Shown piece by piece: positions 9,705-64,000 of a stretch of DNA of 64,000 nt. The DNA is from a virus: the IMG/VR virus record IMGVR_UViG_3300002446_000060; one strand, written 5' to 3'. The stretch's first letter is position 1. Each line of letters opens with the position of its first letter. Under the pieces are notes generated by a model. The model saw only the letters and a list, made by a program, of their open reading frames with translations, searched no databases and was not told the DNA's origin. The position numbers and the translations under genes were made by a program.

Positions 9705-9873
9705 AACCTATAAATCCACCGTCTTTTTTATTAATAATAACTTGAAAATCTTTTTTCTTATTTTGATATGTTATTGAAATATGTGTTTCATTGCCGTATT
9801 GGATAGGTCTTAGTTGCAATCCGCTCTTACCTTTTTTAATTTGTTCAAGAGCGGATTGCAACTCTCTAACCAA
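9682..9873 (-). CDS. Small hypothetical protein in the lysis cassette
   Basis: 63 aa TTG-start ORF filling the gap between the putative holin and endolysin. Confidence 0.4.
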   Translation of the reverse strand: MVRELQSALEQIKKGKSGLQLRPIQYGNETHISITYQNKKKDFQVIINKKDGGFIGFGKTWEW

Positions 9874-9881
9874 TACGTTAC

Positions 9882-10391
9882 TTACTTTTTTGAGCCACTA
9901 AGAGCCATTTTTTCATTTAGAAAATTTTCCACTGACTGAGTAATGGCAGCTGAAACTTTATCTTGAATATACTCTACAACCATATCTCCAGCCAAATATT
10001 TTTGAAGAGTTGACACTTCTGGAGTTAATCTTGCAAGTGCTAATGAAGCAACTTCTTTTGCAATATTAGCAACTTCTTTCATATCGATCTTGCCATCGTT
10101 TTCGTATGCTTCTTCAGCTAATCTTTTAACGGTATTATGCTGAATTGTTAACAAGTCAAATAAAACGTTTTCAACTTTTACGATTGAATCATTTACACGT
10201 TTTGATACTTTTTCTGACAAGTGCTTTTCAGCTAATGATTTGAGATATTGCGCTATTGGTTTGAGCAAAACTAATGATATTGCAATCAAAGAAAGTATCA
10301 TTGCAATAACCAATGTTGCTACTAATGTAATGCCATAGCTCATGAAAAAAGGAAGAATAGTTGAAACCCAGAGAGTGTTTAAAAATTCCAT
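9882..10391 (-). CDS. Putative holin (N-terminal membrane segment, LL-H-like organisation)
   Basis: Hydrophobic ITLVATLVIAMILSLIAISLVLL followed by helical soluble domain; strong SD (AGGAG); upstream of the endolysin. Confidence 0.5.
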   Translation of the reverse strand: MEFLNTLWVSTILPFFMSYGITLVATLVIAMILSLIAISLVLLKPIAQYLKSLAEKHLSEKVSKRVNDSIVKVENVLFDLLTIQHNTVKRLAEEAYENDGKIDMKEVANIAKEVASLALARLTPEVSTLQKYLAGDMVVEYIQDKVSAAITQSVENFLNEKMALSGSKK

Positions 10392-10414
10392 ATATAAACT
10401 CCTATTTAAATAAA

Positions 10415-12136: not shown

Positions 12137-12149
12137 TTATAACACCTCT

Positions 12150-12638
12150 TTATGCAGCAATATTTCTAAATTGTATTTTCCACCAACCCGAAATAGTAAC
12201 ATCAACATCTTTTTCAATTGGATATGATTTAGACGGATTTCTAGATAACATTGAAAACATTACTCCGTCAGTATTAAACAAACCAAATTGCCAAACATCA
12301 TGGCCATTAAATTCACTATCGGCTAGTGTAAAATTAAAAATGATATCATCAGGAGCACCAGATCCATCATATGTCACCGAATCAATAGATTTCAAATAAG
12401 TTGTTCCATCAAGATTCGTTTTTGCAATTCCTACTGGTAAATTACCACTACCAAATTTTACTTTATTTACAGCTTTATTTGTATAAACACCAACGCCACC
12501 AAGCAATTGTGATAGTATTCTACAAGACGTGTTGACAATTAGATTATGTTCTTCAGTTGCTATAACTTCTCCATTTTTGATAATATCAAGATGAAGAATA
12601 CCACTTACATTATTTATGTTATAAACATCGGTTTGCAT
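12150..12638 (-). CDS. Tail collar / fibre attachment protein
   Basis: HNLIVN, KVKFGSGN and FNG..VWQFGLF..DGVMFS pattern of tail-collar fibre proteins; between the gp7-like gene and the fibre. Confidence 0.55.
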   Translation of the reverse strand: MQTDVYNINNVSGILHLDIIKNGEVIATEEHNLIVNTSCRILSQLLGGVGVYTNKAVNKVKFGSGNLPVGIAKTNLDGTTYLKSIDSVTYDGSGAPDDIIFNFTLADSEFNGHDVWQFGLFNTDGVMFSMLSRNPSKSYPIEKDVDVTISGWWKIQFRNIAA

Positions 12639-12669
12639 TGTTTACCTCCGGGTTATTAACTTTATTTAC

Positions 12670-13548
12670 TTATAATAATTTATCAAATGTGTCGTATGGA
12701 ACTCCAAGTTCAGATGCAACTATTGAATATAATTCAAATACTCCGCCATCTTTACCATCATAATTTCTTGTTCCATCAAACATTCTAGCACCATTATAAT
12801 AAAATACTTTTTCACTTAGATCAGCAATTTCAATTATATTTGGCGCTACTAAAAAATCAAATTCATATGTTTCAATTGCATCAGCAACATAAAACGGTTC
12901 TGTTGGTGAATATACTTCCCCGATGGCATATGTTTCAATCGCATCAGCAATATAAAAACTATCTGTTCCATCTACTGGAAATAAAAACTCTGGATAAAAT
13001 CCAACTGGATTCAATTGATCGATCATGGATACAATTAAATTACGTCTAAAGTCGCCTTGAATCGTATAGGTATAAGCATTTTTATATGGGAGATAATTTC
13101 CAGGAATATAATAAGGTGGATCATAACTCATCCAATAATCAGAATTTTCAATTACAGTATAATCAATTGTTTCTACATAATTCTCATCGCTATAAACAAA
13201 GAATCGTGTTAAATATTTTAATGCAATATCAAATGATAATTTTTTACCTTTATTATTATAAAGCAACTTACTAATGGAAAGAAATAATCTCTTATTTTCA
13301 TTAGTAAGCTGATATTGTGTCGTATCCAATAAATTTTTACAATATTGCTCAAAATAATCATCAATAAAAGTATCAGTTATTTTATCCGGATCAAGATTAT
13401 CAGTGATATTCATTATATCCTGAGCGCATTCTTGATCAACAAAATCTATAAATCCATATAAGAATTTTATATATTGCGGATAACGTGTATAGTAATATTC
13501 TGGAATTTTTGAATCAATAATCTGTCTAAGACGTTTAGTAAGAATCAT
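12670..13548 (-). CDS. Baseplate wedge protein (short gp7-like / P2 gpI-like)
   Basis: IPEYY..YPQYIKFL, YNNKGKKLSF, NPVGF and C-terminal YNG..FDG..YDG; follows gp6. Confidence 0.6.
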   Translation of the reverse strand: MILTKRLRQIIDSKIPEYYYTRYPQYIKFLYGFIDFVDQECAQDIMNITDNLDPDKITDTFIDDYFEQYCKNLLDTTQYQLTNENKRLFLSISKLLYNNKGKKLSFDIALKYLTRFFVYSDENYVETIDYTVIENSDYWMSYDPPYYIPGNYLPYKNAYTYTIQGDFRRNLIVSMIDQLNPVGFYPEFLFPVDGTDSFYIADAIETYAIGEVYSPTEPFYVADAIETYEFDFLVAPNIIEIADLSEKVFYYNGARMFDGTRNYDGKDGGVFELYSIVASELGVPYDTFDKLL

Positions 13549-15449
13549 TGAATATACTCCATATAAGCTCTATCATGGTCTAGAAAAGTTTCTTTGTTGA
13601 ATTCGATTGCAATATCATCTGCAAATTCAACTTCAAAGGACATAACATTGTATGTATTGAAATAAAATTTGTCTTGTATTTCTATATAGCCTGTGTCATA
13701 ATTGATTGTTCCACTGTATACACCATTTATAAGGATTGAACCAAGACCATTATCAGTTATTACAAATCCACCAAGATTTCCAGATATTGAATTTTGAACA
13801 ACTTCTCTATCTAATCGAATAACAACTGATGCAAATACTGTGTTTGTTGTTGTTGAAGTTGTTCCATTAGTAATTGTCATTCCTGAATGAAATATATCAG
13901 TTGTAGTTCTTTCTATGACAAGTTCATTTCTAAATGAATTTATAAGTGTAATTATTCCCGATACCGTATGTCCAGAATATAAACCACTAACAGTATCTCC
14001 AACTTCAAAACCAGTAACACTATTAACTTTTACAAAATTTAATGCTTTTGGAAACGATACAAAAGTTCTATAAGTTACAGAACAATAATTAACAAAGTCA
14101 AATGATTTTATGAACGTTATCAATTCCGAAATATTAAACGAAGAATTGAACTTAACTTTTGTTTCCATATAATCATGTATGGCTAATTCAAACGCAACTT
14201 TATCAATATCAAAGTCTCTAAGCATTTTAACAGTAATTGATGGATAAACTCTTAAAATGTTTGGTTTTTTATACTTACCAAAAACTTGAATAAATTTGAA
14301 TGGCTCAAAAAATGTTATAACAGAATTCTGTTCTTCAGATGTCATAAATTCATATGTTACACTTAAATCATTTTCATCAACTGTTCGTCTCAAACCAGAG
14401 AAAATGAAATATCCTTTATCCAATTTAGAACTCGTCGTTAATGTTTCTGTTGGATACTCATCTAATAAAGTTACAATATCTCTATGAGAAGAATAAATTG
14501 TCATATCAGCCATGTTATGATATAATGGCAATTCAGTTATTTTGTTTCTATAATCATCTTCAGTGACGCATCTACCAGCACCAGAGAAAAACAAAGGTGC
14601 ATTAGAAGCGATAGATTGCATTTCTTCCTCATCTAAGCCATCTTTAAGCACATCCGTTGTTAGCGTTGATAAATAACCTGAATCCAAGAATGCTGTTTCA
14701 AAGAGAATGGCTTTCTCATATGTTAAACCATTATATAATGCTCCATTTGTTTTAATATATTTAACTTGAATGGAATCACCAGCCGCTGGAACATTAAAAA
14801 AACCATCGTACTTATCAAAACGAATTTCGAAATTGTCAAGATAACGAATAAAGTAATTATTTGCTAAGTAATAATTCTGCTGTTCATAAACTGATTTCCA
14901 CTGAACACTATTAACAAACAAAGCAAAATTTTCTTGATCAACAGTTTCTTTGTCAGCTAAATAAAATGATTCAAAATCTTCGCCTAGAAATGTATGTTCG
15001 TACGTTATTAGCTGTCCTTCATATGCTTCTATATCCATTGATGATGATGCTGGAATTGTAAAATCTTCTATTGTTATAAGTCGAATCGATTCCATTATAA
15101 ATGAAGTGTATGCTGGTATAAGAACATCAGATGTTTTTGTATTAGTAACAACTAATGTTATTTTTGGGGCCGATTTTCTTCTCGGAAGATAATTTAATTG
15201 ATATGCTGATTTATATATGTTTTCTTCCAATTGAGCAGTCTGAATAAACAGCTCATTACCAACAAAATTCAAAATAGAATTTAAATACATGATAATATAA
15301 GCACAAAAATTTATCCACGAAGAAATAGCCGATCCTTCAAAGTTATAATCTTTTAGCGTTGTCTGTTGTGATAAAAATGTTTTCAAACGTGATTTTACTG
15401 ATTCATAATCAACATCATAAAATTCTTTATAAGCCATAGTGTCCCTCAA
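13545..15449 (-). CDS. gp6: Baseplate wedge subunit (T4 gp6-like)
   Basis: DVDYESVKSRLKTFL, DYNFEGSAIS, ELFIQTAQLEENI and RCVTEDDY motifs. Confidence 0.92.
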   Translation of the reverse strand: MRDTMAYKEFYDVDYESVKSRLKTFLSQQTTLKDYNFEGSAISSWINFCAYIIMYLNSILNFVGNELFIQTAQLEENIYKSAYQLNYLPRRKSAPKITLVVTNTKTSDVLIPAYTSFIMESIRLITIEDFTIPASSSMDIEAYEGQLITYEHTFLGEDFESFYLADKETVDQENFALFVNSVQWKSVYEQQNYYLANNYFIRYLDNFEIRFDKYDGFFNVPAAGDSIQVKYIKTNGALYNGLTYEKAILFETAFLDSGYLSTLTTDVLKDGLDEEEMQSIASNAPLFFSGAGRCVTEDDYRNKITELPLYHNMADMTIYSSHRDIVTLLDEYPTETLTTSSKLDKGYFIFSGLRRTVDENDLSVTYEFMTSEEQNSVITFFEPFKFIQVFGKYKKPNILRVYPSITVKMLRDFDIDKVAFELAIHDYMETKVKFNSSFNISELITFIKSFDFVNYCSVTYRTFVSFPKALNFVKVNSVTGFEVGDTVSGLYSGHTVSGIITLINSFRNELVIERTTTDIFHSGMTITNGTTSTTTNTVFASVVIRLDREVVQNSISGNLGGFVITDNGLGSILINGVYSGTINYDTGYIEIQDKFYFNTYNVMSFEVEFADDIAIEFNKETFLDHDRAYMEYIQ

Positions 15450-15823
15450 CTAACTCTATTTAACGTAAGATTTAAAACATTAGATTCTGATAAACGAATA
15501 AGATCGAAATAAATAAACACCTCGTAATATTGTTCATCTAAATGTTTTTCTATTTCAATGTTGGTTAATCGTATTCTAGGTTCCCAGTTTTCTAGCGCTA
15601 CTTTGATCTCATCTTTAAGCATGATTGCTGTTATATCGCTAATCTTTTCCATCAGTAGTGTATAGATTTTTGAGCCATATAAAGGCATGTTTTCACGTTC
15701 GCCAAGTTTTGTCAATAAAATGTCAACCATTGACTGCTTAACAGCTTCAGCATCTTCTCTATAATTAATTCCGCTAAACTCATTTCTAGCCATGAAATAA
15801 TCCAAATCTAAATAATCAGACAT
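15446..15823 (-). CDS. gp25: Baseplate wedge subunit (T4 gp25-like)
   Basis: AVKQSMVDILLTKLGER...YGS and ALENWEPRI motifs. Confidence 0.92.
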   Translation of the reverse strand: MSDYLDLDYFMARNEFSGINYREDAEAVKQSMVDILLTKLGERENMPLYGSKIYTLLMEKISDITAIMLKDEIKVALENWEPRIRLTNIEIEKHLDEQYYEVFIYFDLIRLSESNVLNLTLNRVS

Positions 15824-16105
15824 TTATATGCTCCTAACATTGCTAGATCCAGTTATAACTGAACCGCTAAATGTTCCAACAAATGGAGAACCTATCATTC
15901 CAATTGGAAGAGAATTGACTCTATTTTTTGTCGTTCCAATTAAAAATCCAATATGACCGCATGAACCTTGAACAATACAATGTAAGTTAGATGTTGGCAA
16001 ACCATTTGTGAATACATTGTTTGAGCCAGTAATTATTCGTCCACTCATCCAAGATTCGCAAGCTGCGCAGTAACCCTGACATATATCATTAACTTTTGAT
16101 ATCAT
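15824..16105 (-). CDS. PAAR-like spike tip protein (gp5.4-like)
   Basis: ITGSNNVFTNGLP, GSCGH and ITGSSNV repeats; directly after gp5. Confidence 0.75.
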   Translation of the reverse strand: MISKVNDICQGYCAACESWMSGRIITGSNNVFTNGLPTSNLHCIVQGSCGHIGFLIGTTKNRVNSLPIGMIGSPFVGTFSGSVITGSSNVRSI

Positions 16106-16116
16106 ATTTTATTTAC

Positions 16117-17181
16117 TCAATTCAGATTTATTAATGAGCCTGTTATCGTAACAATACCGGTTGATGTAACCGAGCATGTTGCGCAGTTAATATCAAGAGC
16201 TGTTGTAGCATCCACGTTTATTGCACTTGTTGCAGATATAGTTAATATACCTGTTGCAGTAATGTTTGTATTCCCGCCAGCTATGTTTAATTCATTTGCA
16301 GAGCCAATATTTACTTCATTGGATGACATAATATTGATTGAATCGTTACCATCAATAAAGATTTCTTTTTCAGCTGTAATTGAAGCCTCATCTTTTAACT
16401 CTATTGTAGCAATTCCATTACATATCAAATCAGTTGTTCCATTTATTTCAACTAATGAATTTCCATCAACTTTTAACAATAAATCACCTTTAACATATGC
16501 ATACTTATCTTGCAAAACGATATCAAAATCATTTCCTTGAATTTTTGATACTTTTGAACCATCTGGATAAACTTCAGTGTATGAGTTTGATGGATGATAA
16601 ATATGTATGCGTTCAGAATTCGGTGTTGAATCCAATTCAATAATTATTCCCGATTGAGTTTCAATAACTCTATTATATGGATATGTTGTGTTATAACCAG
16701 ATTCTGGCTCATCGACATCAATACCACCAACCTGAAAAGTGGTTAGATTATCATTTTTTGTTTTAACACATGTATCGTCCGTTTTTTCATTTCTTGCTAA
16801 TCTTGAAATTGAACTTTCATCTTTATAATCATCAGTTGGATATTCTCCGTTTGGATCAGTAAAACCATTTTCATAAACGGGTGTTTGATCAACTATAAAC
16901 GGCATTACACCAAAATAAACTGGTTTTTGTTTAAATCGATCCAAAAAGAAGACAAAGACTTTTGTTCCATTTACGATTCCACCAAAATCGGATATACCAT
17001 CAGTTGATGAATTTGTAATTGGATATGCTGGAATTGCCCATGGCAATTGTTCTGTTAATAATAATTGAGTCGGTGAATCTATTTGAGTTTTATTTTCCGT
17101 ATGAATTCCAAAGACTCTTATTCGAAGTCTTCCGAGTTTTAACGGATCATTATTATCTTCAACTATTCCAATATAAAACAT
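16117..17181 (-). CDS. gp5: Central spike protein (gp5-like; OB fold plus beta-helix, no lysozyme domain)
   Basis: FYIGIVEDNNDPLKLGRLRIRVFGIH, LPWA, YPYNRVIETQSG and ERIHIYHPS; only 354 aa. Confidence 0.9.
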   Translation of the reverse strand: MFYIGIVEDNNDPLKLGRLRIRVFGIHTENKTQIDSPTQLLLTEQLPWAIPAYPITNSSTDGISDFGGIVNGTKVFVFFLDRFKQKPVYFGVMPFIVDQTPVYENGFTDPNGEYPTDDYKDESSISRLARNEKTDDTCVKTKNDNLTTFQVGGIDVDEPESGYNTTYPYNRVIETQSGIIIELDSTPNSERIHIYHPSNSYTEVYPDGSKVSKIQGNDFDIVLQDKYAYVKGDLLLKVDGNSLVEINGTTDLICNGIATIELKDEASITAEKEIFIDGNDSINIMSSNEVNIGSANELNIAGGNTNITATGILTISATSAINVDATTALDINCATCSVTSTGIVTITGSLINLN

Positions 17182-46764: not shown

Positions 46765-48603
46765 ATGCTCAAACTCAATAAAACACAACTTCAAGAATTA
46801 GAAAAATTTGTTGAGCATTATCAGAATTCAATAAACGCGGCGAGTGGATCATTAGTGGATGCGAATGCTAATGTGACTGAGAAAAATGTGATAACAATGA
46901 TGGGTGAATTTGTTAAACCTATCATGATTCAATATAATCGACATATTAGATATGATCAAATTCAAAAAAATTTCGGTAAGGAAGTAGCTGATCAATATCT
47001 AAAAGATATAGAAAATCATACAATATACGTTCATGACGAATCCCGCGCTAGTGTGCCTTATTGTTTATCAATATCACTTTTCCCATTCTTAAATCATGGT
47101 TCAACTTGTATTGGTGGAAACACTGAAGCACCGAAGCACCTATCTTCATTTTGCGGCGGATTTATTAATTTGATTAACCAGATTGCAGCTCAAGTTGCTG
47201 GTGCTGTTGCCACACCTTCATTTTTAGTATGTTTTGATTATTTTGCAAGAAAAGATTATGGTGATAATTATTTAGAAGATCATAAGAAAGAAATAGATCA
47301 ATATTTACAAGCCGTCACTTATTATTTAAATGAACCTTGTTCGGGTCGAGATGGTCAGTCAGTATTCTGGAATATATCTATCTTTGATGAAACATATTTA
47401 AAGGGTCTCTATTCTGATTTTGTTTATCCAGACGAAAACTTTTCGAGAGTTAATTTTGAATATGTGAATAAACTTCAAAAATATTTCCTCAAATGGTTCA
47501 ATAAAGAAAGAACAAAGAAATTATTAACATTCCCCGTTATTACTTGCGCTATGGCTTATGATGAAAATAAAAATATCAAAGATCAAGAATTTTCATCCTT
47601 TATAGCCAACGAATTATCTGAAGGTAGCGGATTTTTTGTTTATCTATCTGATAATATAGATTCACTTTCAAGTTGTTGCAGATTAAGAAATGAATCTAAG
47701 AATGAATTTTCTTATACTCTCGGAAATGTTGGAGAAATGACTGGTTCTGTTCATGTTATAACAATCAATATGAATAGATTCATTCAGAACACTAAGAGAG
47801 AGTATAATACAAATCAACAATCGTTTGATAGTTTTCTCAATGAGAAATTAAAAGAACTTATTCAAAGAATACATAAATATCATTATTCAACAAGAGAAAT
47901 TTATAGACATATTATGGAAAAGAAAATGTATTCTGTTTATAATGCTCAATTCATTAAAATGGATAGACAATTTTCGACTATCGGTATAAATGGTCTAGTT
48001 GAGGGTGCTGAATTTCTTGGTTATAGTATCGATCCTAACGAAGCTTATATGAATTTCTGTTCAGAGCTTTTGAAAACAATTTCAACAGCCAATAAAGAAG
48101 CTAAACAGATTTATAAAGTTATGTTCAATACTGAATTTGTTCCTGGCGAAAATGCTGGTTATAAATTAGCTCAGTGGGATAAAAAAGATGGATATGTTGT
48201 TCCAAGAGAATGTTATAATTCATATTTTTATCGTGTTGAAGATAATTCTTTGAATATAATTGATAAAGGTAAATTGCATGGTGATCAAGTAACAAAATAT
48301 CTTGATGGTGGTAGTGCTTATCATATTAACTTAGAAGAATATTTGAATGCCGCACAATATGAAAAAATGTTTCATATTATGGCAATATTAGGAGTCAATT
48401 ATTTCTGCACTAATGTTAAGATAACTTGTTGTGAAGAAAAAGATTGCGGTTTTATTGATAAAAGAACGCTATCGAAATGTTCAAAATGCGGCGGTGAAAA
48501 TATTTCACATGCCACCAGAATAATAGGGTATCTCCGAAAAGTAAGCAATTTTTCAGAAGCTCGCCAAGTCGAAGAATCTTTAAGATTTTATCATAAAGAA
48601 TAA
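46765..48603 (+). CDS. nrdD: Anaerobic (class III) ribonucleotide reductase, no ATP cone
   Basis: IYVHDE, SSCCRL, VPGENAG, LDGGSA, CxxxxC..CSKC and TRIIGYL glycyl-radical motif. Confidence 0.95.
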   Translation: MLKLNKTQLQELEKFVEHYQNSINAASGSLVDANANVTEKNVITMMGEFVKPIMIQYNRHIRYDQIQKNFGKEVADQYLKDIENHTIYVHDESRASVPYCLSISLFPFLNHGSTCIGGNTEAPKHLSSFCGGFINLINQIAAQVAGAVATPSFLVCFDYFARKDYGDNYLEDHKKEIDQYLQAVTYYLNEPCSGRDGQSVFWNISIFDETYLKGLYSDFVYPDENFSRVNFEYVNKLQKYFLKWFNKERTKKLLTFPVITCAMAYDENKNIKDQEFSSFIANELSEGSGFFVYLSDNIDSLSSCCRLRNESKNEFSYTLGNVGEMTGSVHVITINMNRFIQNTKREYNTNQQSFDSFLNEKLKELIQRIHKYHYSTREIYRHIMEKKMYSVYNAQFIKMDRQFSTIGINGLVEGAEFLGYSIDPNEAYMNFCSELLKTISTANKEAKQIYKVMFNTEFVPGENAGYKLAQWDKKDGYVVPRECYNSYFYRVEDNSLNIIDKGKLHGDQVTKYLDGGSAYHINLEEYLNAAQYEKMFHIMAILGVNYFCTNVKITCCEEKDCGFIDKRTLSKCSKCGGENISHATRIIGYLRKVSNFSEARQVEESLRFYHKE

Positions 48604-51469: not shown

Positions 51470-51829
51470 ATGAAAACATTTAATGAATATCTAAATATTG
51501 TTTGCGAGAATGAAGATAAAGAACTTGATAAAATAATCAATAGTCGTTTATCAGCTAGTTCTCAACAAATGAGAAAAAAACTGAAATCTGAATTGAAAAA
51601 ACTTATAGCTGGTGCAAGTAGCAATCTAGGTAAGTGGATTGAAGAAAAACAATCGGGCATCAAAGAATTTCTTCCTGAGTATTGGGAAGCTGCTTTAGCT
51701 GCATTGATATATCATCCAGAATCTGATTACGAACCACATCAAAAAATAAGAATGTATCATGCTATTGGTTCTTCATTCCATGAAAATATGAGAGATCCTC
51801 GAATGAAATACGATCCAGATGAAGATTAA
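51470..51829 (+). CDS. Putative head-internal protein (paralog of 52283)
   Basis: Leader MKTFNEYLNIVCE|N; shares KKL..E..KL..G..S.LGKW..E..GIK..PE with 52283. Confidence 0.5.
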   Translation: MKTFNEYLNIVCENEDKELDKIINSRLSASSQQMRKKLKSELKKLIAGASSNLGKWIEEKQSGIKEFLPEYWEAALAALIYHPESDYEPHQKIRMYHAIGSSFHENMRDPRMKYDPDED

Positions 51830-52286
51830 ATACCTTCGTTCAAATATAGTATTTCAAGAGATACCGGGTGAAATATCACTATCTTTTGAAATTACAAATT
51901 GTCCTTATTGCTGTCATAATTGTCATTCGCCTGAATTGCAAGAAGATATTGGTATTGAGTTAACTGTAGATGTTTTGCGATATTATATCGAAAAAAATAA
52001 AATAAATAATAAAATGTTAATTTCTTGTGTATTATTTATGGGAGGTGATCAGCATCCTGAATTATTAGACTTAATAAAAGTAGTCAAAGAATACAATTTG
52101 AAGACTGCTCTCTACACTGGAAGCGATGATGTTGATATAATACTCAAAAATCAATTAGATTATCTTAAAACGGGTCCATACATTAAAGAATTTGGCGATT
52201 TGAGATCTAAGAACACTAATCAAAGATTGTATAAAATAGTTGGTGGTATAGAAGTTTCTAGAATTGAGTTAGGAGATTTAACATGA
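51819..52286 (+). CDS. nrdG: Anaerobic RNR activating enzyme (radical SAM)
   Basis: FQEIPGEISL, CPYCCHNC (CxxxCxxC), FMGGD and YLKTGPY..NTNQRLY. Confidence 0.92.
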   Translation: MKIKYLRSNIVFQEIPGEISLSFEITNCPYCCHNCHSPELQEDIGIELTVDVLRYYIEKNKINNKMLISCVLFMGGDQHPELLDLIKVVKEYNLKTALYTGSDDVDIILKNQLDYLKTGPYIKEFGDLRSKNTNQRLYKIVGGIEVSRIELGDLT

Positions 52287-56455: not shown

Positions 56456-56953
56456 ATGAATTTTGAATTCGCTAAAGTAAGAGAAGTAAAGTCACCATTA
56501 CGTGGAACCGAAAAATCTGTTGGCATTGATTTTTTTGTTCCGGAATTTGATGAAAAATTTGTTAGAGATTTAAAAGAAAAGAACCCAAATATTAGTATTA
56601 TTGATGAAAAAATTATTCAAATTATGCCTCAAGAGCATGTTCTTATTCCATCTGGCATAAAAGTAAAACTTCCATCAAACTATTTTCTTAATGCTTTTAA
56701 TAAATCAGGGGTTAGTTCAAAGAAGCAATTAATTAAAATGGCTGAAACTGTTGATGAAGATTATCAAGGTGAAGTTCACATTTCTATTCTTAATGCTGGA
56801 CGAAAAATTCAGACTATTACAGAACATGAAAAGCTTATTCAATTTATTCTTCTTCCAGCATTATATGCTAATATTATTGAAAAAGATCAAGATAGTATTT
56901 ATACCAATATAACCAAACGAGGAGATGGCGGTTTTGGATCAACAAATAAATAA
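56456..56953 (+). CDS. dut: Trimeric dUTPase
   Basis: GIDFF, NKSG, VDEDYQGE and RGDGGFGST motifs. Confidence 0.92.
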   Translation: MNFEFAKVREVKSPLRGTEKSVGIDFFVPEFDEKFVRDLKEKNPNISIIDEKIIQIMPQEHVLIPSGIKVKLPSNYFLNAFNKSGVSSKKQLIKMAETVDEDYQGEVHISILNAGRKIQTITEHEKLIQFILLPALYANIIEKDQDSIYTNITKRGDGGFGSTNK

Positions 56954-58112
56954 TTTAACTTGGTGTAGTATAATTCCATTGATAGGCGGTTTAACACTTG
57001 GTGCTCAGAATGTACTAAAAACGCTACCAGAATATATAATATCCTTTGATGGATTTCAAGATAATGATAGTCACACTCTAAACCACTTTAAAAATGATAA
57101 TATTCCATATCTTAATGGAGATAAATTAGAAAATATCGATAAAGTTGATATGACCGTAATGGTTCCGCCATGTAGCGCTTTATCTAATTTAAACGTTAAA
57201 AGCGATACTGAATATGAATCAATAAAGTGGTTATACATTTCGACTAAGATAGCTATGGAGAAATGCGAAGCTAAAGTTATCATAGGAGAAAATGCTCCGG
57301 GTTTGTTTACTAAGAAGGGAAAAGCTGTCGTAGATCAACTTCATCAAATTGGTCTTGAACATGGTTATTCATTAAGTATTTTTAAAATAGATTCTAAATA
57401 TTGTAATTGCCCTCAGCAAAGATTAAGATCATTTTTTGTGTTTTGGAAAGGTGATCATACATATGAATTAGAACCGAAATGCGAAATGATTAAGATAGAT
57501 GATTATCTTAAAAAAACTAAGTTGAATATGAAATATCATAATGAAAAAGAAGAAGAAGACAGACTAATTAATTCAGCTCAGTATAAGTTTATTAAATATG
57601 AAATGAAACAAGAACTTAGTCAATTCTTAGATGGTGTTGGCTTTATTCAAAGATTGTTTAAGAATAACTTAATTGATAAATTTGAACAATTTCTTATAAA
57701 CAATAAATTTGATAAAGATCTAGCTTTAATAAAACATATTAAATATAAATTATCGATTGGAAAAAGTTTTTGGGATTCATATTCCATTTATGATACTCAT
57801 ACTAGAGGTTGCACAAACGCATTAACGGGTAAAACGATTAAAACATTATTACATCCATATAAAGATAGATTTTTAACCAATGCTGAATTGATTGCGATTA
57901 TGGGTTTACCATTTGATTATGAAATAGTTAATGATAAACTTATTCATATTACTCAAAATGTGACAGTTCAATCGGCTGAATTTATGGTTAAAGAATGTAA
58001 AAAATATTTTACAAATAATTTAAGAAAAATAAATTCTACATTAAATTATCAAGATTTAACAATAAGTGATAATATAAAACCAGAAACAATTGAGCTTAAC
58101 AATTTATTTTAA
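56925..58112 (+). CDS. DNA (cytosine-5) methyltransferase
   Basis: IPLIGG (motif I variant), PPCS (IV), GENAP (VI), PQQRLRSF (VIII) and TQNV (X). Confidence 0.82.
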   Translation: MAVLDQQINNLTWCSIIPLIGGLTLGAQNVLKTLPEYIISFDGFQDNDSHTLNHFKNDNIPYLNGDKLENIDKVDMTVMVPPCSALSNLNVKSDTEYESIKWLYISTKIAMEKCEAKVIIGENAPGLFTKKGKAVVDQLHQIGLEHGYSLSIFKIDSKYCNCPQQRLRSFFVFWKGDHTYELEPKCEMIKIDDYLKKTKLNMKYHNEKEEEDRLINSAQYKFIKYEMKQELSQFLDGVGFIQRLFKNNLIDKFEQFLINNKFDKDLALIKHIKYKLSIGKSFWDSYSIYDTHTRGCTNALTGKTIKTLLHPYKDRFLTNAELIAIMGLPFDYEIVNDKLIHITQNVTVQSAEFMVKECKKYFTNNLRKINSTLNYQDLTISDNIKPETIELNNLF

Positions 58113-58437
58113 AGGATATATTATGAATGAGATTGCTTTTAAAGGCGAAAAAGATAGTAAAGGAAAACTTAGAGTAGATTTAGTAACGCCTGAATGTATT
58201 ATTGGCATGGCTGAAGTTCTAGGAAAAGCATTAGAAAAATATACTCCAAATAGTTGGCAAAATGTGAAAGATGGTTTAAACGAGCATTACGCTGCGGTAT
58301 TACGTCACCTTCTTAAATGGCGTATGGGCGAATTAGATGATGACGAAACAAAACTAAGTCATATGAAACATGTTTTAACTAATGCAATGTTTCTGTTATA
58401 TCATGAAGAACATTTGTTGAGAAATAAAAATGAATAA
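58090..58437 (+). CDS. DUF5664-type (dATP/dGTP diphosphohydrolase-like) protein; likely start 58123
   Basis: KDSKGKLRVDLV, KYTPNSW, AVLRHL..W..GE..D.ETKLSHMKHV.TN motifs. Confidence 0.8.
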   Translation: MSLTIYFKGYIMNEIAFKGEKDSKGKLRVDLVTPECIIGMAEVLGKALEKYTPNSWQNVKDGLNEHYAAVLRHLLKWRMGELDDDETKLSHMKHVLTNAMFLLYHEEHLLRNKNE

Positions 58438-59128
58438 AAATGAATTAATAAAATACTATAAACAATTATATCAAAAATTGATATCCGAAGATTTTATTAT
58501 AGATAAATCAGGAGTTAAATTAGTTGAATTGATTGCTCCAAGATTTGAATTAGATCCAAACGAAGATTTAATTGATATTGAAATTCGTTCTAGTAATGCT
58601 AAATATGTGTTACAAGAATTAGATTGGTATTTGAGTAATGAATTGCATATTAATCGTGTTAATAATGTACGGATATGGAAAGAATGCGCAGATAATAATC
58701 AAGAAATAAATTCAAACTATGGTTATTTGGTTTTTGGTAGAGGAAATTTTAATCAATTTAATCACTGTTTGCAGACATTATTAAATCATAATGAATCAAG
58801 ACAAGCTATTGTTATTTATAATCGTCCATCGATTCATTATGAAGCAAATAGTTTTAATTGTAAAGACTTTATTTGCACTATGTTTCAACAGTTTTTTATT
58901 CGAAATAATAAATTAGAAACTATTACTAGTATGAGATCTAATGACTGTATTTTTGGCGCGTTTAACGATATTCCATGGTTCCATTATGTTATTAAAAAAA
59001 TGAAAGAAGAATTAAATAATAATGGACTTAATATTGAATTGGGACAGCATATATTTATTCCTAATTCTTGGCATTGTTATGAGCGTCATTTTGATATTTT
59101 AAGAAAAATCGGAGAACAATGTGAATAA
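58430..59128 (+). CDS. dCMP hydroxymethylase-like thymidylate synthase homolog (gp42-like)
   Basis: INSNYG, SRQA, DFICT and MRSNDCIFGAFNDIPW with Asp at the dC-specificity position (cf. T4 DFMCT, RSNDVVFGFRNDYAW); SWHCYERHF. Confidence 0.85.
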   Translation: MNKNELIKYYKQLYQKLISEDFIIDKSGVKLVELIAPRFELDPNEDLIDIEIRSSNAKYVLQELDWYLSNELHINRVNNVRIWKECADNNQEINSNYGYLVFGRGNFNQFNHCLQTLLNHNESRQAIVIYNRPSIHYEANSFNCKDFICTMFQQFFIRNNKLETITSMRSNDCIFGAFNDIPWFHYVIKKMKEELNNNGLNIELGQHIFIPNSWHCYERHFDILRKIGEQCE

Positions 59129-59528
59129 ATTTGATAATTTGTATATGGATATTGCAATTCGAATAAGCCAGATGAGTTTTTCTAATAGATCAAAAGTTGG
59201 TGCTGTAATAGTTAAAGAGAATAATATCGTTGCTTTTGGTTGGAATGGAATGCCATCTGGCTTTTCTAATTCTTGTGAAGATGAAAATAATAATACACAC
59301 GACGAAGTTATTCATGCTGAAGAAAATGCCATTTGTAAAGCTGCTAAACAAGGAATATCATTAAAAGACTCAACATTATATTTAACATTGAGTCCGTGTC
59401 CACATTGCGCAAAACTAATTATTCAAAGCGGAATAAAAAATGTTATTTATTTAGAAGAATATCGTATTAATAAGTGGATTGAATTTTTAAAAGAGTGTAA
59501 TATTAATGTGAGGCATTATGATAATTGA
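59121..59528 (+). CDS. dCMP deaminase
   Basis: KVGAVIV, GWNG, HAEENAI and PCPHC motifs. Confidence 0.93.
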   Translation: MNKFDNLYMDIAIRISQMSFSNRSKVGAVIVKENNIVAFGWNGMPSGFSNSCEDENNNTHDEVIHAEENAICKAAKQGISLKDSTLYLTLSPCPHCAKLIIQSGIKNVIYLEEYRINKWIEFLKECNINVRHYDN

Positions 59529-60090
59529 ACATAGAATAAATACAATTGGAGAATTAAAAAATGTTGATAAAAGTAACGGAATAGAAGTTGATATAAGATA
59601 TGATTCTAGTGTTAAAGATGTCGTTCTTACACATGATATTAACTTTACCCATAATAATACCTTAAATGATTTTTTACATTATTATAACCACGCGTTAATA
59701 ATATTTAACATTAAATCTAGTTTGTGCGAAGAGTATTGTATTCGATTAATGGAAAAGTTCAATATAAAAAACTACTTATTTCTCGATTCTCAAATTCCAG
59801 ATATCATTAAATATGCTAAGCTGGGATATGGGGATAAATTCATAACACGTATATCTAAATTTGAAACATATAATAAAAATTTAGTTTCATTGGCATCGAA
59901 GTATATATGGGTCGACACATTTGGTGAAGCGGATATTTCTTTCATAAATCAAAATGATAATCATGACTATATTTTTGTTTCTCCAGAATTGCATAAAAAA
60001 GATGAAAATATTGTTATATTAAAAGAAATGATAAAACAAAAATTTGATGTTTATCATGTTTGTACTGATTTTAAAAATTACTGGACATAA
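59518..60090 (+). CDS. GDPD-like (PLC-like phosphodiesterase) protein
   Basis: IEHRINT..GIEVDIR..THD..IFNIK; type seen in surface-polysaccharide loci. Confidence 0.65.
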   Translation: MIIEHRINTIGELKNVDKSNGIEVDIRYDSSVKDVVLTHDINFTHNNTLNDFLHYYNHALIIFNIKSSLCEEYCIRLMEKFNIKNYLFLDSQIPDIIKYAKLGYGDKFITRISKFETYNKNLVSLASKYIWVDTFGEADISFINQNDNHDYIFVSPELHKKDENIVILKEMIKQKFDVYHVCTDFKNYWT

Positions 60091-60093
60091 TAC

Positions 60094-61410
60094 ATGTTTG
60101 ATTTAAGCTTTATAGTTAAAAACAAAAAATTGTTAATAATAGATATTGATGACACAGTTTTGTCATATCAAAAAGCTCATGCTATTGCATTGAACGAAAC
60201 GCTATCAAAATACAATTTTACAATTGATGAATATAACAATAGTAAAGAATTAGTTAAGAAATTTATTAAGGGTGTTAATCAACATAAAAAAGAACTTTAT
60301 TTTAAAAAAATGGTTGAAGATTCAAACCATGATTATTCATTAGTACTCGAATTAACGAAAACATATAACTATTATTTATTTAAACACTTGGTGCTTGATG
60401 TATCAATAAAAAACTTATTAATTTACTGCAAAAATAATAATATTAACATTTGCGCGTTATCCAATTTTTATTCATTAGATCAAATCAAAAAATTGAAAAA
60501 ATTAAACATACTTCAATATTTTAATCATATAATAACCAGTGAAGATATTGATATAGAAAAGCCAAGTCCATTCATTTATTCATTTATATTAGAAAAATTT
60601 AATCTTAAATATAATGATGCAATTATGATTGGTGATTCAATAGTTGATATGCCATCATTCGGCATCGATTATTATCCATATAATTGTAACAATTTATTTT
60701 TTGCTATTTGTGGAAAATCTGGTTGCGGAAAATCTACACTAGCCATGCTATTAAAAGAAATATTTGGGGCAACAATTATTGAAGGCGATAATTATCATAA
60801 ATATGAACGAAATAGCGATATGTATAAAATAATGACTCATTATGATTATAGAGCTAATAATATTGATAAAATGAATGACGATATTCGTAAGTTATTTTAT
60901 TTAAAAAATATTTTATTGGCTCAATATGATCATACAACTGGAAAATTCAATAATATATCTGAAGTTAAATATAATGACAAAATAATTTTTGAAGGTTTGC
61001 ACTGGTTAAATTCAATTGAGACAAATAAGTTTTTTAAATTTAAAATATTCATAAATAATTTTCATAGTGATGAAAATAAAATTAAGCGAGATACAAGATA
61101 TCGAAACAAAACTAAAGAAACAGTAATAGATTCAATCAATGCTCGTAGTAACGATTATGATAAGTTTATTTATATTCAAAATAAATGTAGTAATATGATA
61201 TTCAATTATAATGAAACCGAACTAGAAATTGTTTTTACAAATGAATTTAATTTTGACATATTAAAAGCTATTTTTGAAAAATTAAATAATAATGTTATAA
61301 TAGAACAAAATCAATTCAAAGTACGTTATTCAATTGCAAATAATATTCGTGAATATCGTTCGGTTATAGTTAAATTATTTAATTTGCTAAAAAGGAACAT
61401 CTATGAATAA
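60094..61410 (+). CDS. HAD hydrolase fused to PRK/uridine-kinase-like P-loop kinase
   Basis: IDIDDT, EKPSP and MIGD (HAD); GKSGCGKST, EGDNYH, YDHTTGKF and EGLH (kinase). Confidence 0.85.
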   Translation: MFDLSFIVKNKKLLIIDIDDTVLSYQKAHAIALNETLSKYNFTIDEYNNSKELVKKFIKGVNQHKKELYFKKMVEDSNHDYSLVLELTKTYNYYLFKHLVLDVSIKNLLIYCKNNNINICALSNFYSLDQIKKLKKLNILQYFNHIITSEDIDIEKPSPFIYSFILEKFNLKYNDAIMIGDSIVDMPSFGIDYYPYNCNNLFFAICGKSGCGKSTLAMLLKEIFGATIIEGDNYHKYERNSDMYKIMTHYDYRANNIDKMNDDIRKLFYLKNILLAQYDHTTGKFNNISEVKYNDKIIFEGLHWLNSIETNKFFKFKIFINNFHSDENKIKRDTRYRNKTKETVIDSINARSNDYDKFIYIQNKCSNMIFNYNETELEIVFTNEFNFDILKAIFEKLNNNVIIEQNQFKVRYSIANNIREYRSVIVKLFNLLKRNIYE

Positions 61411-62071
61411 AACTGAAGCTACAAAATACTATAAAAAATTGCAATCATTGGTGAGCAATTTATTTGATTCGCCTAGCATTGGCGGAAACATATCTGTAAA
61501 ATATGATGACAAAATGTTAATAAAATCTTCTGGTTCTAATTTAAAAAATGAAACAAAAATATCTATAATGAATAATGAAACAGACATGAATTTAAATAAG
61601 ATTAAGCCATCTATGGAATATTCATTTCATAAAATTATACCATACAAATTTGTGCTGCACTATCATCCGATTTATCTTATGCCTTATCTCTGTTCTAATC
61701 ATAAATTCGATTTACCTTTTAAATTTAAAATACTCGATTATCATATGCCAGGCGTTGAATTAGCAGGAGCTATTTTAAATAATTCCAAATATAATATTTA
61801 TCTATTAAAGAATCACGGCATAATTCTTTGCCACAATGATATAGAACAAATTGAAGAAATGTATCGTTATATTAAAGAAAAATTTATTTCAATCTTAAAA
61901 TTTAATGATTATATTTCTCCAGATGATGTTATATTAAATAATGATATTGAAGTAATTCTTTATCATTGGGCAATAAGGGGATTATCAAATAACATCATAT
62001 ATTTAAATGATAATGATGTTAATGATTTAAATTCAAATTCAGATGAAAAATATAGGAAAAATTTAATATGA
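61403..62071 (+). CDS. Class II aldolase / sugar-phosphate epimerase family protein
   Basis: GGNISVK, IKSSG, PSMEYSFH, LHYHP and LLKNHGI motifs. Confidence 0.85.
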   Translation: MNKTEATKYYKKLQSLVSNLFDSPSIGGNISVKYDDKMLIKSSGSNLKNETKISIMNNETDMNLNKIKPSMEYSFHKIIPYKFVLHYHPIYLMPYLCSNHKFDLPFKFKILDYHMPGVELAGAILNNSKYNIYLLKNHGIILCHNDIEQIEEMYRYIKEKFISILKFNDYISPDDVILNNDIEVILYHWAIRGLSNNIIYLNDNDVNDLNSNSDEKYRKNLI

Positions 62072-63591
62072 ACATTATCATTCCGTGTACTGGCTTAGGC
62101 AAAAGATTTATTTCAAATGGTTATTCATGCCATAAGTCTTTTTTGCCTGTTGATAATAACGATTTAGTAATAGATAAAGTTATTAAAATGTTTGATCCCA
62201 AAGATAATTTTATTATTATTGCTAATGAATTTAATTACTCGGAATTAGTTAATCACTTTGTTAGATCAAACATTCATATCATTTTATCATATTATGAAGC
62301 CACCGGGCCAGTTAAATCTATTATAAATGCAAAAAATAAAATATTAGATGTTTTACAAGATGAGGGATGCATAATATCATATTCGGATTTTTATCAAACA
62401 TATGATTACTTAGATTTTAAAGAATGGATTAAAAACACAAATTCCGATGGCTGCATACTATCATACACAAATTATCATCCACATTTTAATGTCACAAATA
62501 ATAAATATGCTTCGTCAAAACTAGATAAAGACAATAATGTATTAGAAATAAAAGAAAAACATAATTTTGATTCAATGGAAAAAAGTTTTCATTCATCGGG
62601 AATGTATTATTTTAAATCGTTTGAATTAATCATGAAATACTTCAATATTTTAATTGATAAAAATATTCATTTAAACAATGAATACTATGTTTCGATGGTC
62701 TATAATGAAATGATTAATGACAAGTTAAAGATAACATCATATAATAAAATTCATCACTTTCTACAGCTTGGAACACCCCAAGATTATGAATATTTTAAAT
62801 CAATGGAAGATAAATATTTGAAATTGAATTCATTGTATATCAAAGAAAATAATATTAGACAAATAATGTTAATGGCTGGCCGATCAGAACGTTTTATTAA
62901 TGACGGATATGATATACCAAAACCATTTTTGATGGTATCCGATAAAAAAATGCATCTTATTCAAGATGATTATCTAAATTGCTATAAACGAACTTATATT
63001 ACCGCGGATGATTATGAAGAGTATGTTGAAAAGGACATATATGACAAATATGTTTTTATTGAAAAAAATAAAATAGGACCGGCATATTCTTATTATAAAG
63101 GCGCTAAACATATAACAGGCGAAGTGATCATAACTTCTTGCGATGTATTAGCTAATTATTTTACTAAGAATTTTTATGATAAAATTGATGAGAGCGATGT
63201 TATTATATTCGCCACAACCAATCATAAAAATTCAATAGAAAATCCTAATTCATATTCATGGATTAAACATGATAACGAAAAGGTTGAATCAGTATCATTA
63301 AAGAAACTATTGAATAATGCTAAAACAGACTATATGTTAATTGGTTCATTTTATGTAAAAAATAATGAAACATTTATTCATCATCTGAATTCTTTCTTAT
63401 CTATAGAAAAACAAAACAATGAAGAATATTTTATTGATGAATTTATGAATTATTTATTACTTTTCGGATATAAAATTAATACTGTTCTTGTTGATGGTTA
63501 TTATTCATTTGGAACACCAAAAGAATATAAAGAGTCTAATTATTTTTTAACCTATTTTGATAAAGAAAGTGAAACTAATGATAGAAATTAA
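62068..63591 (+). CDS. Tandem two-domain sugar nucleotidyltransferase
   Basis: IIPCTGLGKRF..HKSFL and MLMAGRSERF..PKPFL domains; each ends EYY/EYF...LGTP/FGTP. Confidence 0.85.
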   Translation: MNIIIPCTGLGKRFISNGYSCHKSFLPVDNNDLVIDKVIKMFDPKDNFIIIANEFNYSELVNHFVRSNIHIILSYYEATGPVKSIINAKNKILDVLQDEGCIISYSDFYQTYDYLDFKEWIKNTNSDGCILSYTNYHPHFNVTNNKYASSKLDKDNNVLEIKEKHNFDSMEKSFHSSGMYYFKSFELIMKYFNILIDKNIHLNNEYYVSMVYNEMINDKLKITSYNKIHHFLQLGTPQDYEYFKSMEDKYLKLNSLYIKENNIRQIMLMAGRSERFINDGYDIPKPFLMVSDKKMHLIQDDYLNCYKRTYITADDYEEYVEKDIYDKYVFIEKNKIGPAYSYYKGAKHITGEVIITSCDVLANYFTKNFYDKIDESDVIIFATTNHKNSIENPNSYSWIKHDNEKVESVSLKKLLNNAKTDYMLIGSFYVKNNETFIHHLNSFLSIEKQNNEEYFIDEFMNYLLLFGYKINTVLVDGYYSFGTPKEYKESNYFLTYFDKESETNDRN

Positions 63592-64000
63592 TAATTCCTT
63601 TGAAAACTATCTGTCTGATCTTAATTCATATTCGTTTGTTATTGATGCTATACAATCTATGAAAGAATATGAAGAGAAAATACCAATTTGCGTGTTATCG
63701 TATAAGTATGATAAAAAACGATCGAAATTTATTGTTCAATTGATGAATGAAATAGAACAAAACGGAAAATTAAACAGATCAATTATAATTTTTGTGTATG
63801 AAGAAGAAAAAGAACTTTATTCATTTTTATTAAAATACGATGGTATAGAACTTGTCTATATTAAAAAAGATAATGAAAATAGTACTTTATCTGGAAAAAG
63901 AAATTTTATCATTGATTATGCTAATCAACAGGGATTTAAGAACATTTTTATGATTGAAGACGATTGCGATAAGTTCTTTATTCCAATTCAAAAATTTAAA
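63578..64000 (+). CDS. GT-A fold glycosyltransferase, partial (runs off window end; absent from ORF track)
   Basis: Manual translation: MIEINN...IPICVLSYKY...IFVYEEEKELY...SGKRNFIIDYANQQGFKNIFMIEDDCDKF; RN..I and metal-binding EDD as in phage DNA glycosyltransferases. Confidence 0.7.
   Translation, partial: MIEINNSFENYLSDLNSYSFVIDAIQSMKEYEEKIPICVLSYKYDKKRSKFIVQLMNEIEQNGKLNRSIIIFVYEEEKELYSFLLKYDGIELVYIKKDNENSTLSGKRNFIIDYANQQGFKNIFMIEDDCDKFFIPIQKFK

Follow-up and report, generated by a model that had tools for sequence, protein, structure and literature searches.

We conclude that an uncultured T4-like phage, represented by the 64,000-nucleotide stretch IMGVR_UViG_3300002446_000060 of IMG/VR (the whole of which we call the window), fairly likely carries a DNA-hypermodification locus of T4 logic with a new sugar supply, which would place a pentulose-type sugar on 5-hydroxymethylcytosine (hmC). 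The cytosines of the phage DNA thus probably carry a sugar that has not been described on DNA before. The locus includes a thymidylate synthase (TS) homolog with the active-site signature of T4 gp42, a dCMP deaminase and a sugar-activation cassette of four genes, which encode a GDPD-like phosphodiesterase, a fusion of a HAD phosphatase with a phosphoribulokinase (PRK)-type kinase, a class II aldolase-fold protein, and a double nucleotidyltransferase (NTase). A TAGT-family glycosyltransferase (GT) follows the cassette. The kind of system is already known from T4 and RB69 (modified dCMP made before replication, a DNA glycosyltransferase, and a nucleoside diphosphate [NDP] sugar made by the phage), and what is new is the sugar pathway.

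The original prediction, made from the letters of the window, named these seven genes as a contiguous locus that begins with the gp42-like gene. Profile searches and structure models recovered all seven in place on the + strand, and the run is contiguous, with neighboring genes that overlap by 4 to 14 bases or sit 3 bases apart. The extent given for the genes from position 58430 onward stands, but the start does not, as the single tightly overlapping run comprises ten genes (window 56456 to 64000, + strand) and begins about 2 kb further upstream. Its additional members encode a dUTPase-like protein, a C5-cytosine DNA methyltransferase, and a PF18909 (MazZ-like) protein. The final 12 kb of the window (11,933 bases) is base-for-base identical to two longer public contigs (L001 and L002; NCBI GCA_900230635.1, contig OCNU01000024.1, 120 kb, and JGI 3300002219, 76 kb). 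This identity gave access to the sequence downstream of the window and with it the complete GT gene, which encodes 314 amino acids (aa).

The cassette is predicted, from enzyme families, domain fusions, and synteny, to divert ribulose-5-phosphate. The kinase domain would convert it to the 1,5-bisphosphate, the fused HAD domain would take off the 5-phosphate to leave a pentulose-1-phosphate, and the class II aldolase-fold enzyme would change the configuration of that product. The GDPD-like enzyme and the two NTase domains would then turn the altered pentulose-1-phosphate into an NDP-activated sugar. On the nucleotide side, the dCMP deaminase, the dUTPase-like protein, and the MazZ-like nucleoside triphosphatase would shape the pools, and hydroxymethyl-dCTP, formed by phosphorylation, would be incorporated into phage DNA. 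Finally, to judge from its family membership, the GT would transfer the sugar after replication to the hydroxymethyl group of hmC in DNA, and this glycosylation would shield the DNA from host nucleases.

The kinase is of true phosphoribulokinase type. The core motifs of PRK are kept in a motif-by-motif alignment of one family member (P0012) and as invariant columns across the family alignment, and the closest relatives in the PDB are cyanobacterial, plant, and archaeal PRKs (6gve, 1.9e-20; 6hzk, 3e-18). This assignment to the PRK type does not imply the identity of a Calvin-cycle PRK, and the score against the equivalog model NF005655 is 116 bits, under the cut-off of 236. The fusion protein as a whole matches the NCBIfam models for phosphoribulokinase (1.8e-33) and ribulose-1,5-bisphosphate (RuBP) 5-phosphatase (NF053830; 1e-16), both under their cut-offs. 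The weak RuBP 5-phosphatase match, and one to ribulose-1-phosphate aldolase (NF053831; 1.7e-4), likewise far below the cut-off, point the same way, toward a pentulose-1-phosphate route. The earlier suggestion of a pentose, pentulose, or polyol fits a kinase of this type; it had also been held that the product cannot be deduced from sequence, and the identity of the sugar does stay inferential.

The remaining cassette enzymes are recognizable by residues and fold. In the alignment of aldolase-fold proteins, positions G28, N29, S31, G44, P70, H92, H94, and H155 (FucA numbering) occur in all rows, and the equivalent of FucA E73 occurs in every row except AraD. The protein of the window thus keeps the FucA-type zinc ligands, the glutamate, and the phosphate site (GN.S / SG), lacks the Y113 loop, and ends in its own conserved family-specific segment (YTPDD...DEKYR). 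Most characterized members of the class II aldolase fold use ketose-1-phosphates, and the present enzyme may be an aldolase, an epimerase, or a dehydratase. The GDPD-like protein matches no Pfam family, including the Pfam GDPD model, and a sequence-only PDB search gave no match for either its profile or the GT. The label is nevertheless right at the level of the fold: an AlphaFold model built from an alignment of five homologs (pLDDT 82) matches the GDPD TIM barrels 2pz0, 3i10, and 5t9c in Foldseek with probability 1.0 and query TM scores of 0.64 to 0.72. Its HR / E.D.R / HD residues (H5, E23, D25, R27, H39, and D40) are invariant in the alignment and follow the GDPD order, a comparison made by order of motifs. 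In the double NTase both halves are complete (motifs G.G.R...K, D, K, G.Y.F, and GTP..Y in the alignment), and the model (pLDDT 85) contains two RmlA/GalU-like domains (Foldseek 4evw, 3.6e-15). Many relatives (P0009 to P0016) are natural HAD-PRK-aldolase fusions, and three proteins of 737 to 741 aa (P0244, P0245, and P0248) are natural GDPD-NTase-NTase fusions, with the GDPD-like part at the N-terminal end (hidden Markov model E value, 1e-32). The five domains are thus united in nature as two blocks, one HAD-PRK-aldolase and the other GDPD-NTase-NTase.

The last activation step can be sketched only speculatively. Because a ketose-1-phosphate is not anomeric, both NTase sites are complete, and the phosphodiesterase is of a family known for cyclic-phosphate chemistry, we propose a two-step 1,2-cyclic activation. 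An NDP-1-pentulose would give a 1,2-cyclic phosphate, the GDPD-like enzyme would open this to the anomeric 2-phosphate, and a second nucleotidyl transfer would follow. In this form, hmC would be decorated with a ketopentofuranose of the xylulose or ribulose type, through a previously undescribed anomeric activation of a ketose that ends with the conversion of pentulose-2-phosphate to NDP-2-pentulose. We offer this version tentatively and give it a modest minority of our confidence. If true, it would be the first ketose-modified DNA base and would supply the missing pathway for xylulose in the surface glycans of Campylobacter and others.

An alternative that we regard as unlikely is that hmC receives an ordinary aldopentose, such as arabinose or ribose, so that an RB69-like outcome is reached by non-homologous enzymes. 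Both routes begin at ribulose-5-phosphate, and the kinase-phosphatase-NTase logic is that by which HY126 and RB69 make UDP-arabinose (arabinose-5-phosphate to arabinose-1,5-bisphosphate to arabinose-1-phosphate to UDP-arabinose). The capsules of Campylobacter jejuni contain D-ribose and L-arabinose besides D-xylulose. On the other hand, domain searches found no sugar-phosphate isomerase (SIS/KdsD type) in the locus, a PRK-type kinase phosphorylates C1 of a ketose, and the class II aldolase fold acts on ketose phosphates; an aldopentose route would also leave the GDPD-like enzyme and the second NTase domain without a role. The arabinosyl-5-hydroxycytosine system of RB69, DLP3, and HY126 consists of a 5-hydroxy-dCMP (5hodCMP) synthase, an arabinose-5-phosphate isomerase, the NTase-kinase AfhE, the HAD phosphatase AfhF, and GT-B arabinosyltransferases (Lee et al., NAR 2026, PMC13326640). 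The window resembles it in the phage-encoded path from ribulose-5-phosphate through a bisphosphate, a HAD phosphatase, and an NTase to an NDP-pentose, and in the placement of these genes beside a TS homolog and DNA glycosyltransferases. It differs in the predicted base (hmC rather than 5-hydroxycytosine), in the absence of an isomerase, in a TAGT rather than GT-B transferase, in a kinase of PRK type fused to HAD rather than of APH type fused to an NTase, and in its additional aldolase-fold enzyme, GDPD-like enzyme, and second NTase domain. The components common to both routes are only the HAD enzyme and the NTase fold; the proteins of the window gave no tblastn match to the RB69 cluster, and SIS and APH domains are absent from the locus. 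The statement that the enzyme set is not that of the T4 or RB69 pathways therefore holds, as the arabinose-5-phosphate isomerase, the NTase-kinase fusion, and the GT-B transferase are all missing and BLAST detects no similarity to the RB69 cluster.

An indication of the acceptor comes from the company that the cassette keeps. Relatives were gathered with the HAD-PRK fusion and the NTase as queries, and their contigs were inspected for context. The same four genes occur in five further divergent T4-like contigs (L012, L014, L015/L011, L030, and the ENA contig ERZ1426823) at 33 to 47% identity, and the same order at such identities in independent contigs implies that the gene grouping is not due to chance. 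A TAGT homolog follows the cassette in all four comparable contigs (L012, L014, L015/L011, and L030), while the ERZ1426823 contig has a 342-aa gene at that position and lies outside the comparison. A TS homolog directly precedes the cassette in four of the five, with the gp42 signature in both that were aligned (L014 and L015), and a C5 methylase is nearby in three. L014 also encodes an Alc-family protein; Alc of T4 is tied to hmC-containing DNA. In an unrooted tree of 83 HAD-PRK proteins or clusters, for most of which the context is unknown, the rows with a bacterial name group in a single sub-cluster, and those known to be from phages branch elsewhere, in several deep clades. This pattern suggests that phages did not acquire the cassette in a single recent event. 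Among GenBank phages, blastn with the locus and tblastn with the HAD-PRK fusion and with the GT gave zero matches, which implies that the cassette is missing from the cultured phages of that collection; the sole match from the cassette was that of the NTase to cyanophages, at 30% identity. A pattern scan of IMG/VR with the HAD-PRK protein was also empty, which we attribute to the limited reach of pattern matching in AT-rich sequence and not to absence.

The GT itself is consistent with this context. The full-length protein scores 45.2 bits against Pfam TAGT (1.3e-11; cut-off, 27.5) and, aligned with the T6-type TAGT of phage AR1, retains the DXD motif and the invariant residues G106, R108, D128, D129, D223, Y245, S249, K251, G253, and S255. 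In T6-like phages, TAGT places a second glucose on glucosyl-hmC, and those members likewise occur without TET. The GT of the window is predicted to transfer its sugar to hmC in DNA. As the phage cassettes travel with a gp42-type synthase and a TAGT enzyme, and as the GT shares the DXD and invariant residues, DNA is the most likely acceptor by these sequence criteria. In two of the related phages (L015 and L030), a second, GT47/exostosin-like glycosyltransferase gene stands after the TAGT homolog, and these phages may add a second sugar; the window has no such gene.

We think it quite unlikely that the cassette and GT instead decorate a target other than DNA (either virion proteins or the surface polysaccharide of the host, whose modification could, for instance, prevent superinfection) and that the hmC pathway is merely adjacent. 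What favors this is the bacterial distribution of the cassette. The original prediction noted a resemblance to bacterial surface-polysaccharide cassettes, and we found the GDPD-like, HAD-PRK, aldolase, and NTase genes in this very order in the capsule loci of C. jejuni, C. coli, C. lari, C. hepaticus, and Helicobacter (L008 and L023 to L026), at 34 to 38% identity to the window. Their neighbors are heptose genes, DUF8374/DUF2972 transferases, and methyl-phosphoramidate (MeOPN) genes, and another bacterial copy adjoins rml genes. In cyanophages S-SM2 and Bellamy, a double NTase (30% identity) and a class II aldolase are encoded two genes apart, and in S-SM2 this pair sits inside a large lipopolysaccharide (LPS)-like sugar cluster; tblastn detected no HAD-PRK, GDPD-like, TS, or TAGT homolog in S-SM2. 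However, the phage cassettes are followed by an enzyme of the TAGT family, whose known members act on hmC-DNA, and in the window and four other divergent lineages a gp42-type synthase comes before them. Behind the bacterial copies lie the unrelated DUF8374/DUF2972 transferases and MeOPN genes, and TS and TAGT homologs were absent from all bacterial cassette contexts inspected. In addition, the locus in the window lies among replication and nucleotide-metabolism genes. The neighborhood comparison of phages with capsule loci thus places the cassette on both sides and the synthase homolog and TAGT on the phage side only, which supports the proposed transfer to a modified cytosine.

It is very unlikely, in our estimation, that the activated compound is an NDP-pentulose or NDP-polyol linked through its primary phosphate, comparable to CDP-ribitol or CDP-6-fructose, and that it is attached to hmC or to a first sugar as a teichoic-acid-like phosphodiester. 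The phosphate of pentulose-1-phosphate is indeed primary and non-anomeric, C. jejuni makes CDP-6-D-fructose and CDP-6-D-glucitol in this way, the Campylobacter NTase homologs have faint IspD matches, and the gene set includes a GDPD-like phosphodiesterase. Yet in phages the cassette has a single conserved transferase companion, which is the DXD-containing TAGT glycosyltransferase and not a phosphotransferase, and both NTase domains are most similar to sugar-1-phosphate NTases of the RmlA/GalU type.

The base to be glycosylated is predicted from the TS homolog, which was aligned with Escherichia coli ThyA, the T4-type gp42 of phage AR1, RB69 gp48, and the homologs from L014 and L015. Its top PDB match is T4 dCMP hydroxymethylase (1b49; 2.7e-42), whereas E. 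coli ThyA reaches only about 4e-9. In ThyA numbering, L143 is replaced by Asp, C146 and D169 are kept, and N177 is replaced by Asp (within the stretches KDFICT and FNDIPW), which amounts to the complete signature of gp42; the homologs next to the cassettes of L014 and L015 likewise have D143, C146, D169, and D177, and RB69 gp48 has N169. The change of N177 to Asp confers dCMP specificity and that of L143 to Asp or Glu allows access of water (PMC13326640). RB69-type homologs produce 5hodCMP with O2 and flavin; Asn at position 169 marks that type and is present in all tested 5hodCMP synthases, while T4 gp42 retains Asp (PMC13326640). Given the full gp42 signature, the similarity to the T4 enzyme, and the anaerobic setting described below, we predict that the TS homolog is a dCMP 5-hydroxymethylase that makes 5-hydroxymethyl-dCMP, and not an RB69-type enzyme that makes 5hodCMP. 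Such hmC chemistry would be independent of O2 and would suit an anaerobic source, and the anaerobic ribonucleotide reductase NrdD and the habitat fit an O2-independent hydroxymethylase and argue against both a hydroxylase and a TET dioxygenase. The RB69-type reading (5-hydroxycytosine with arabinose) was ruled out by Asp169 and the lack of homology to the RB69 cluster. That the glycosylated base is not hmC, because the TS homolog is an ordinary dTMP synthase or an RB69-type 5hodCMP synthase, is hardly credible: databases do annotate the family as thymidylate synthase and glycosylation of 5-hydroxycytosine is widespread in T4-like phages (PMC13326640), but the Asp residues at 177 (dCMP and not dUMP), 143, and 169, the match to T4 gp42, the lack of any BLAST match to RB69 gp48, and the O2 requirement of 5-hydroxylation in a phage with NrdD and NrdG all speak against it.

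Several observations weigh against the proposed pentulose-type modification of hmC. An intact C5-cytosine methylase (motifs PPC, ENA, QQRLR, and QNV, read from the translation) is odd beside an hmC pathway, because hmC cannot be methylated at C5, and its company is hard to reconcile with full replacement of cytosine by hmC; the methylase may act on residual cytosines or do something else. Neither a gp56-type dCTPase nor a dNMP kinase was recognized in the window, so replacement of cytosine may be incomplete. In L012, the genes called in the 10 kb before the cassette include no TS homolog, and the 222-aa open reading frame (ORF) at the TS position does not align as one. The capsule role in Campylobacter, and the two genes in the LPS-like cluster of S-SM2 with no gp42 gene at that locus, imply that the cassette is not DNA specific in itself. 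The sugar, its nucleotide carrier, and its acceptor are all matters of inference, and the step that would make a true glycosyl donor from a non-anomeric phosphate is speculative.

Around the TS homolog, the MazZ-like protein is a candidate dNTP pyrophosphohydrolase; its assignment as a gp56-type dCTPase was dropped, as its similarity to RB69 gp56 is nil. The dUTPase-like protein is a candidate for an enzyme that shapes the dUTP and dCTP pools. The methylase homologs adjoin the cassette in L015/L011, L030, and the ERZ1426823 contig, so that, with the window, four divergent phage lineages combine an intact C5 methylase with the cassette, at 27 to 31% identity. In L014 and L015, as in RB69 and DLP3, a thymidylate-kinase-like P-loop protein is encoded directly upstream of the TS homolog, a position taken in the window by the MazZ-like gene. 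At the position of the dCMP deaminase of the window, between the genes for the TS homolog and the GDPD-like protein, three phage lineages encode a conserved protein of 178 to 191 aa that belongs to no known family.

Among known systems, the T-even phages with glucosyl-hmC (gp42, gp56, gp1, and alpha- and beta-glucosyltransferases, with a T6-type TAGT) share with the window the gp42 active-site signature, the dCMP deaminase, a post-replicative TAGT DNA glycosyltransferase of the T6-like type, and the T4-like genome backbone. They use host UDP-glucose and have no sugar-activation genes, whereas the five-domain cassette would supply the donor here; the window also differs in that it has a C5 methylase and that no gp56-type dCTPase was recognized in it. 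In phages that hypermodify DNA with TET/JBP and TAGT enzymes, a C5 methylase reportedly makes 5-methylcytosine, which TET converts to hmC for a glycosyltransferase. The window likewise has a C5-cytosine methylase and a TAGT enzyme in one locus, but neither the + strand ORFs of at least 90 aa that were scanned in the window nor the 10 kb that follow it yielded a TET/JBP homolog. The genomic association of TAGT with TET/JBP is thus not seen here, and the TET route to hmC was rejected; in contrast, the predicted origin of hmC is pre-replicative synthesis by the gp42-type enzyme, in a source that appears anaerobic. The NDP-heptose pathway (GmhA, the kinase HldE/HddA, the HAD phosphatase GmhB, and the NTase HldC/HddC) makes a bisphosphate, removes the distal phosphate, and transfers a nucleotidyl group. 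The window follows the same logic with a PRK kinase rather than a GHMP kinase or ribokinase, no isomerase, and an extra aldolase-fold enzyme, GDPD-like enzyme, and second NTase domain. In the haloarchaeal non-carboxylating pentose bisphosphate pathway, too, a HAD enzyme acts on RuBP and then a class II aldolase acts on ribulose-1-phosphate; those enzymes are catabolic and end in dihydroxyacetone phosphate and glycolaldehyde, whereas the products in the window would feed nucleotidyltransferases.

For T4-like phages, glycosylated cytosines are a main means of evading restriction enzymes, CRISPR, and further nucleases, and they are themselves targets of type IV restriction and of new defense systems. 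To our knowledge, pathways have been worked out only for glucose on hmC and for arabinose or hexoses on 5-hydroxycytosine. The present locus suggests another, widespread family of uncultured T4-like phages, in which a chemically different sugar donor would come from the phage's own genes. Capsule loci of C. jejuni and C. coli very often contain the cassette, so that working out the phage pathway would also tell what a module for capsule biosynthesis does in a major food-borne pathogen, and the pathway could reveal how ketoses or other unusual pentoses are activated. We found no paper that describes the cassette and no published function for the Campylobacter copy. The literature, the names of cluster members, and a scan of genome contigs assigned neither a serotype nor a product to the Campylobacter cassette and gave no link to the serotype that has xylulose. 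No such genes are listed for the HS:1 and HS:19 loci as described in papers, so the ketoses of those serotypes (fructose and sorbose) are not explained by the cassette.

Table 1. Features of the window and of related contigs
Sequence	Feature	Position	Strand	Remarks
Window	NrdD, anaerobic ribonucleotide reductase	46765-48603	+
Window	NrdG-like 4Fe-4S activase	51819-52286	+
Window	dUTPase-family protein, 165 aa	56456-56953	+	Pfam dUTPase 9.1e-13; NCBIfam dut 81 bits, below cut-off of 102
Window	C5-cytosine DNA methyltransferase, 395 aa	56925-58112	+	Pfam DNA_methylase 9.3e-18
Window	PF18909 protein (MazZ-type dATP/dGTP diphosphohydrolase N-terminal domain), 104 aa	58123-58437	+	Pfam 6.5e-26
Window	TS homolog, T4 gp42 type	58430-59128	+	Pfam Thymidylat_synt 7.6e-17
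Window	dCMP deaminase, 135 aa	59121-59528	+	Pfam dCMP_cyt_deam_1 2.6e-27; phrog_174 1.4e-56
Window	GDPD-fold (PLC-like TIM barrel) phosphodiesterase-like protein, 190 aa	59518-60090	+	First gene of sugar cassette
Window	HAD phosphatase (residues ~8-188) and phosphoribulokinase-type P-loop kinase (~200-380), fused	60094-61410	+	Pfam HAD_2 4.5e-18, PRK 6.3e-22
Window	Class II aldolase/epimerase-fold protein, 222 aa	61403-62071	+	Pfam Aldolase_II 9.7e-13; PDB 2opi 1.6e-9
Window	Tandem double sugar-phosphate NTase, 507 aa	62068-63591	+	phrog_3980 2.5e-62
Window	TAGT-family (PF20691) GT, N-terminal 141 aa	63578-64000	+	Cut by window end; Pfam TAGT 1.2e-7
L001	Full-length GT	11511-12455
L007 (S-SM2)	Double NTase and class II aldolase	9001-12309
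L012	Cassette and TAGT homolog	8730-16277
L014	Thymidylate-kinase-like protein	4042-4605
L014	178-191-aa protein	5291-5866
L015	Thymidylate-kinase-like protein	6868-7395
L015	178-191-aa protein	8126-8662
L015	GT47/exostosin-like GT	14387-15469
L015	C5 methylase	15462-16736
L030	178-191-aa protein	6797-7351
L030	GT47/exostosin-like GT	12700-13788
L030	C5 methylase	13779-15011

The phage has a low GC content (about 28%). From about 30 kb onward, the + strand of the window encodes a T4-like backbone that includes a gp55-like sigma factor, a gp46/47-like nuclease, topoisomerase II, UvsX, UvsY, NrdD with NrdG, the clamp loader, and RegA. The predicted NrdD and NrdG-like activase fit an anaerobic host. 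The contigs trace to JGI samples 3300002219, 3300002220, and 3300000568, and the record prefixes SCADCLC and MLSBCLC resemble those of what we take to be anaerobic oil-sands tailings enrichment cultures. The habitat of the phage thus appears to be anaerobic.

The related contig L012 (ENA ERZ17914141, 24 kb) is translated correctly only when TGA is read as Trp. The 222-aa ORF upstream of its cassette is radical-SAM-like (CxxxCxxC), and genes for an R2K ATP-grasp protein and a radical SAM protein lie downstream. In the parent contigs of the window, the GT gene is followed by a 65-aa ORF and a ParB-like gene. The two are the same through the latter and diverge from about position 13680 of these contigs onward, beyond the end of the window. 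One variant continues with HD-domain, Metallophos, PolyA_pol, and Acb1 (anti-CBASS) genes. The other (L002) continues with genes for ThyX, a PARP/WGR protein, and a gyrase-B-like topoisomerase subunit, and the presence of ThyX would free the ThyA homolog from dTMP synthesis.

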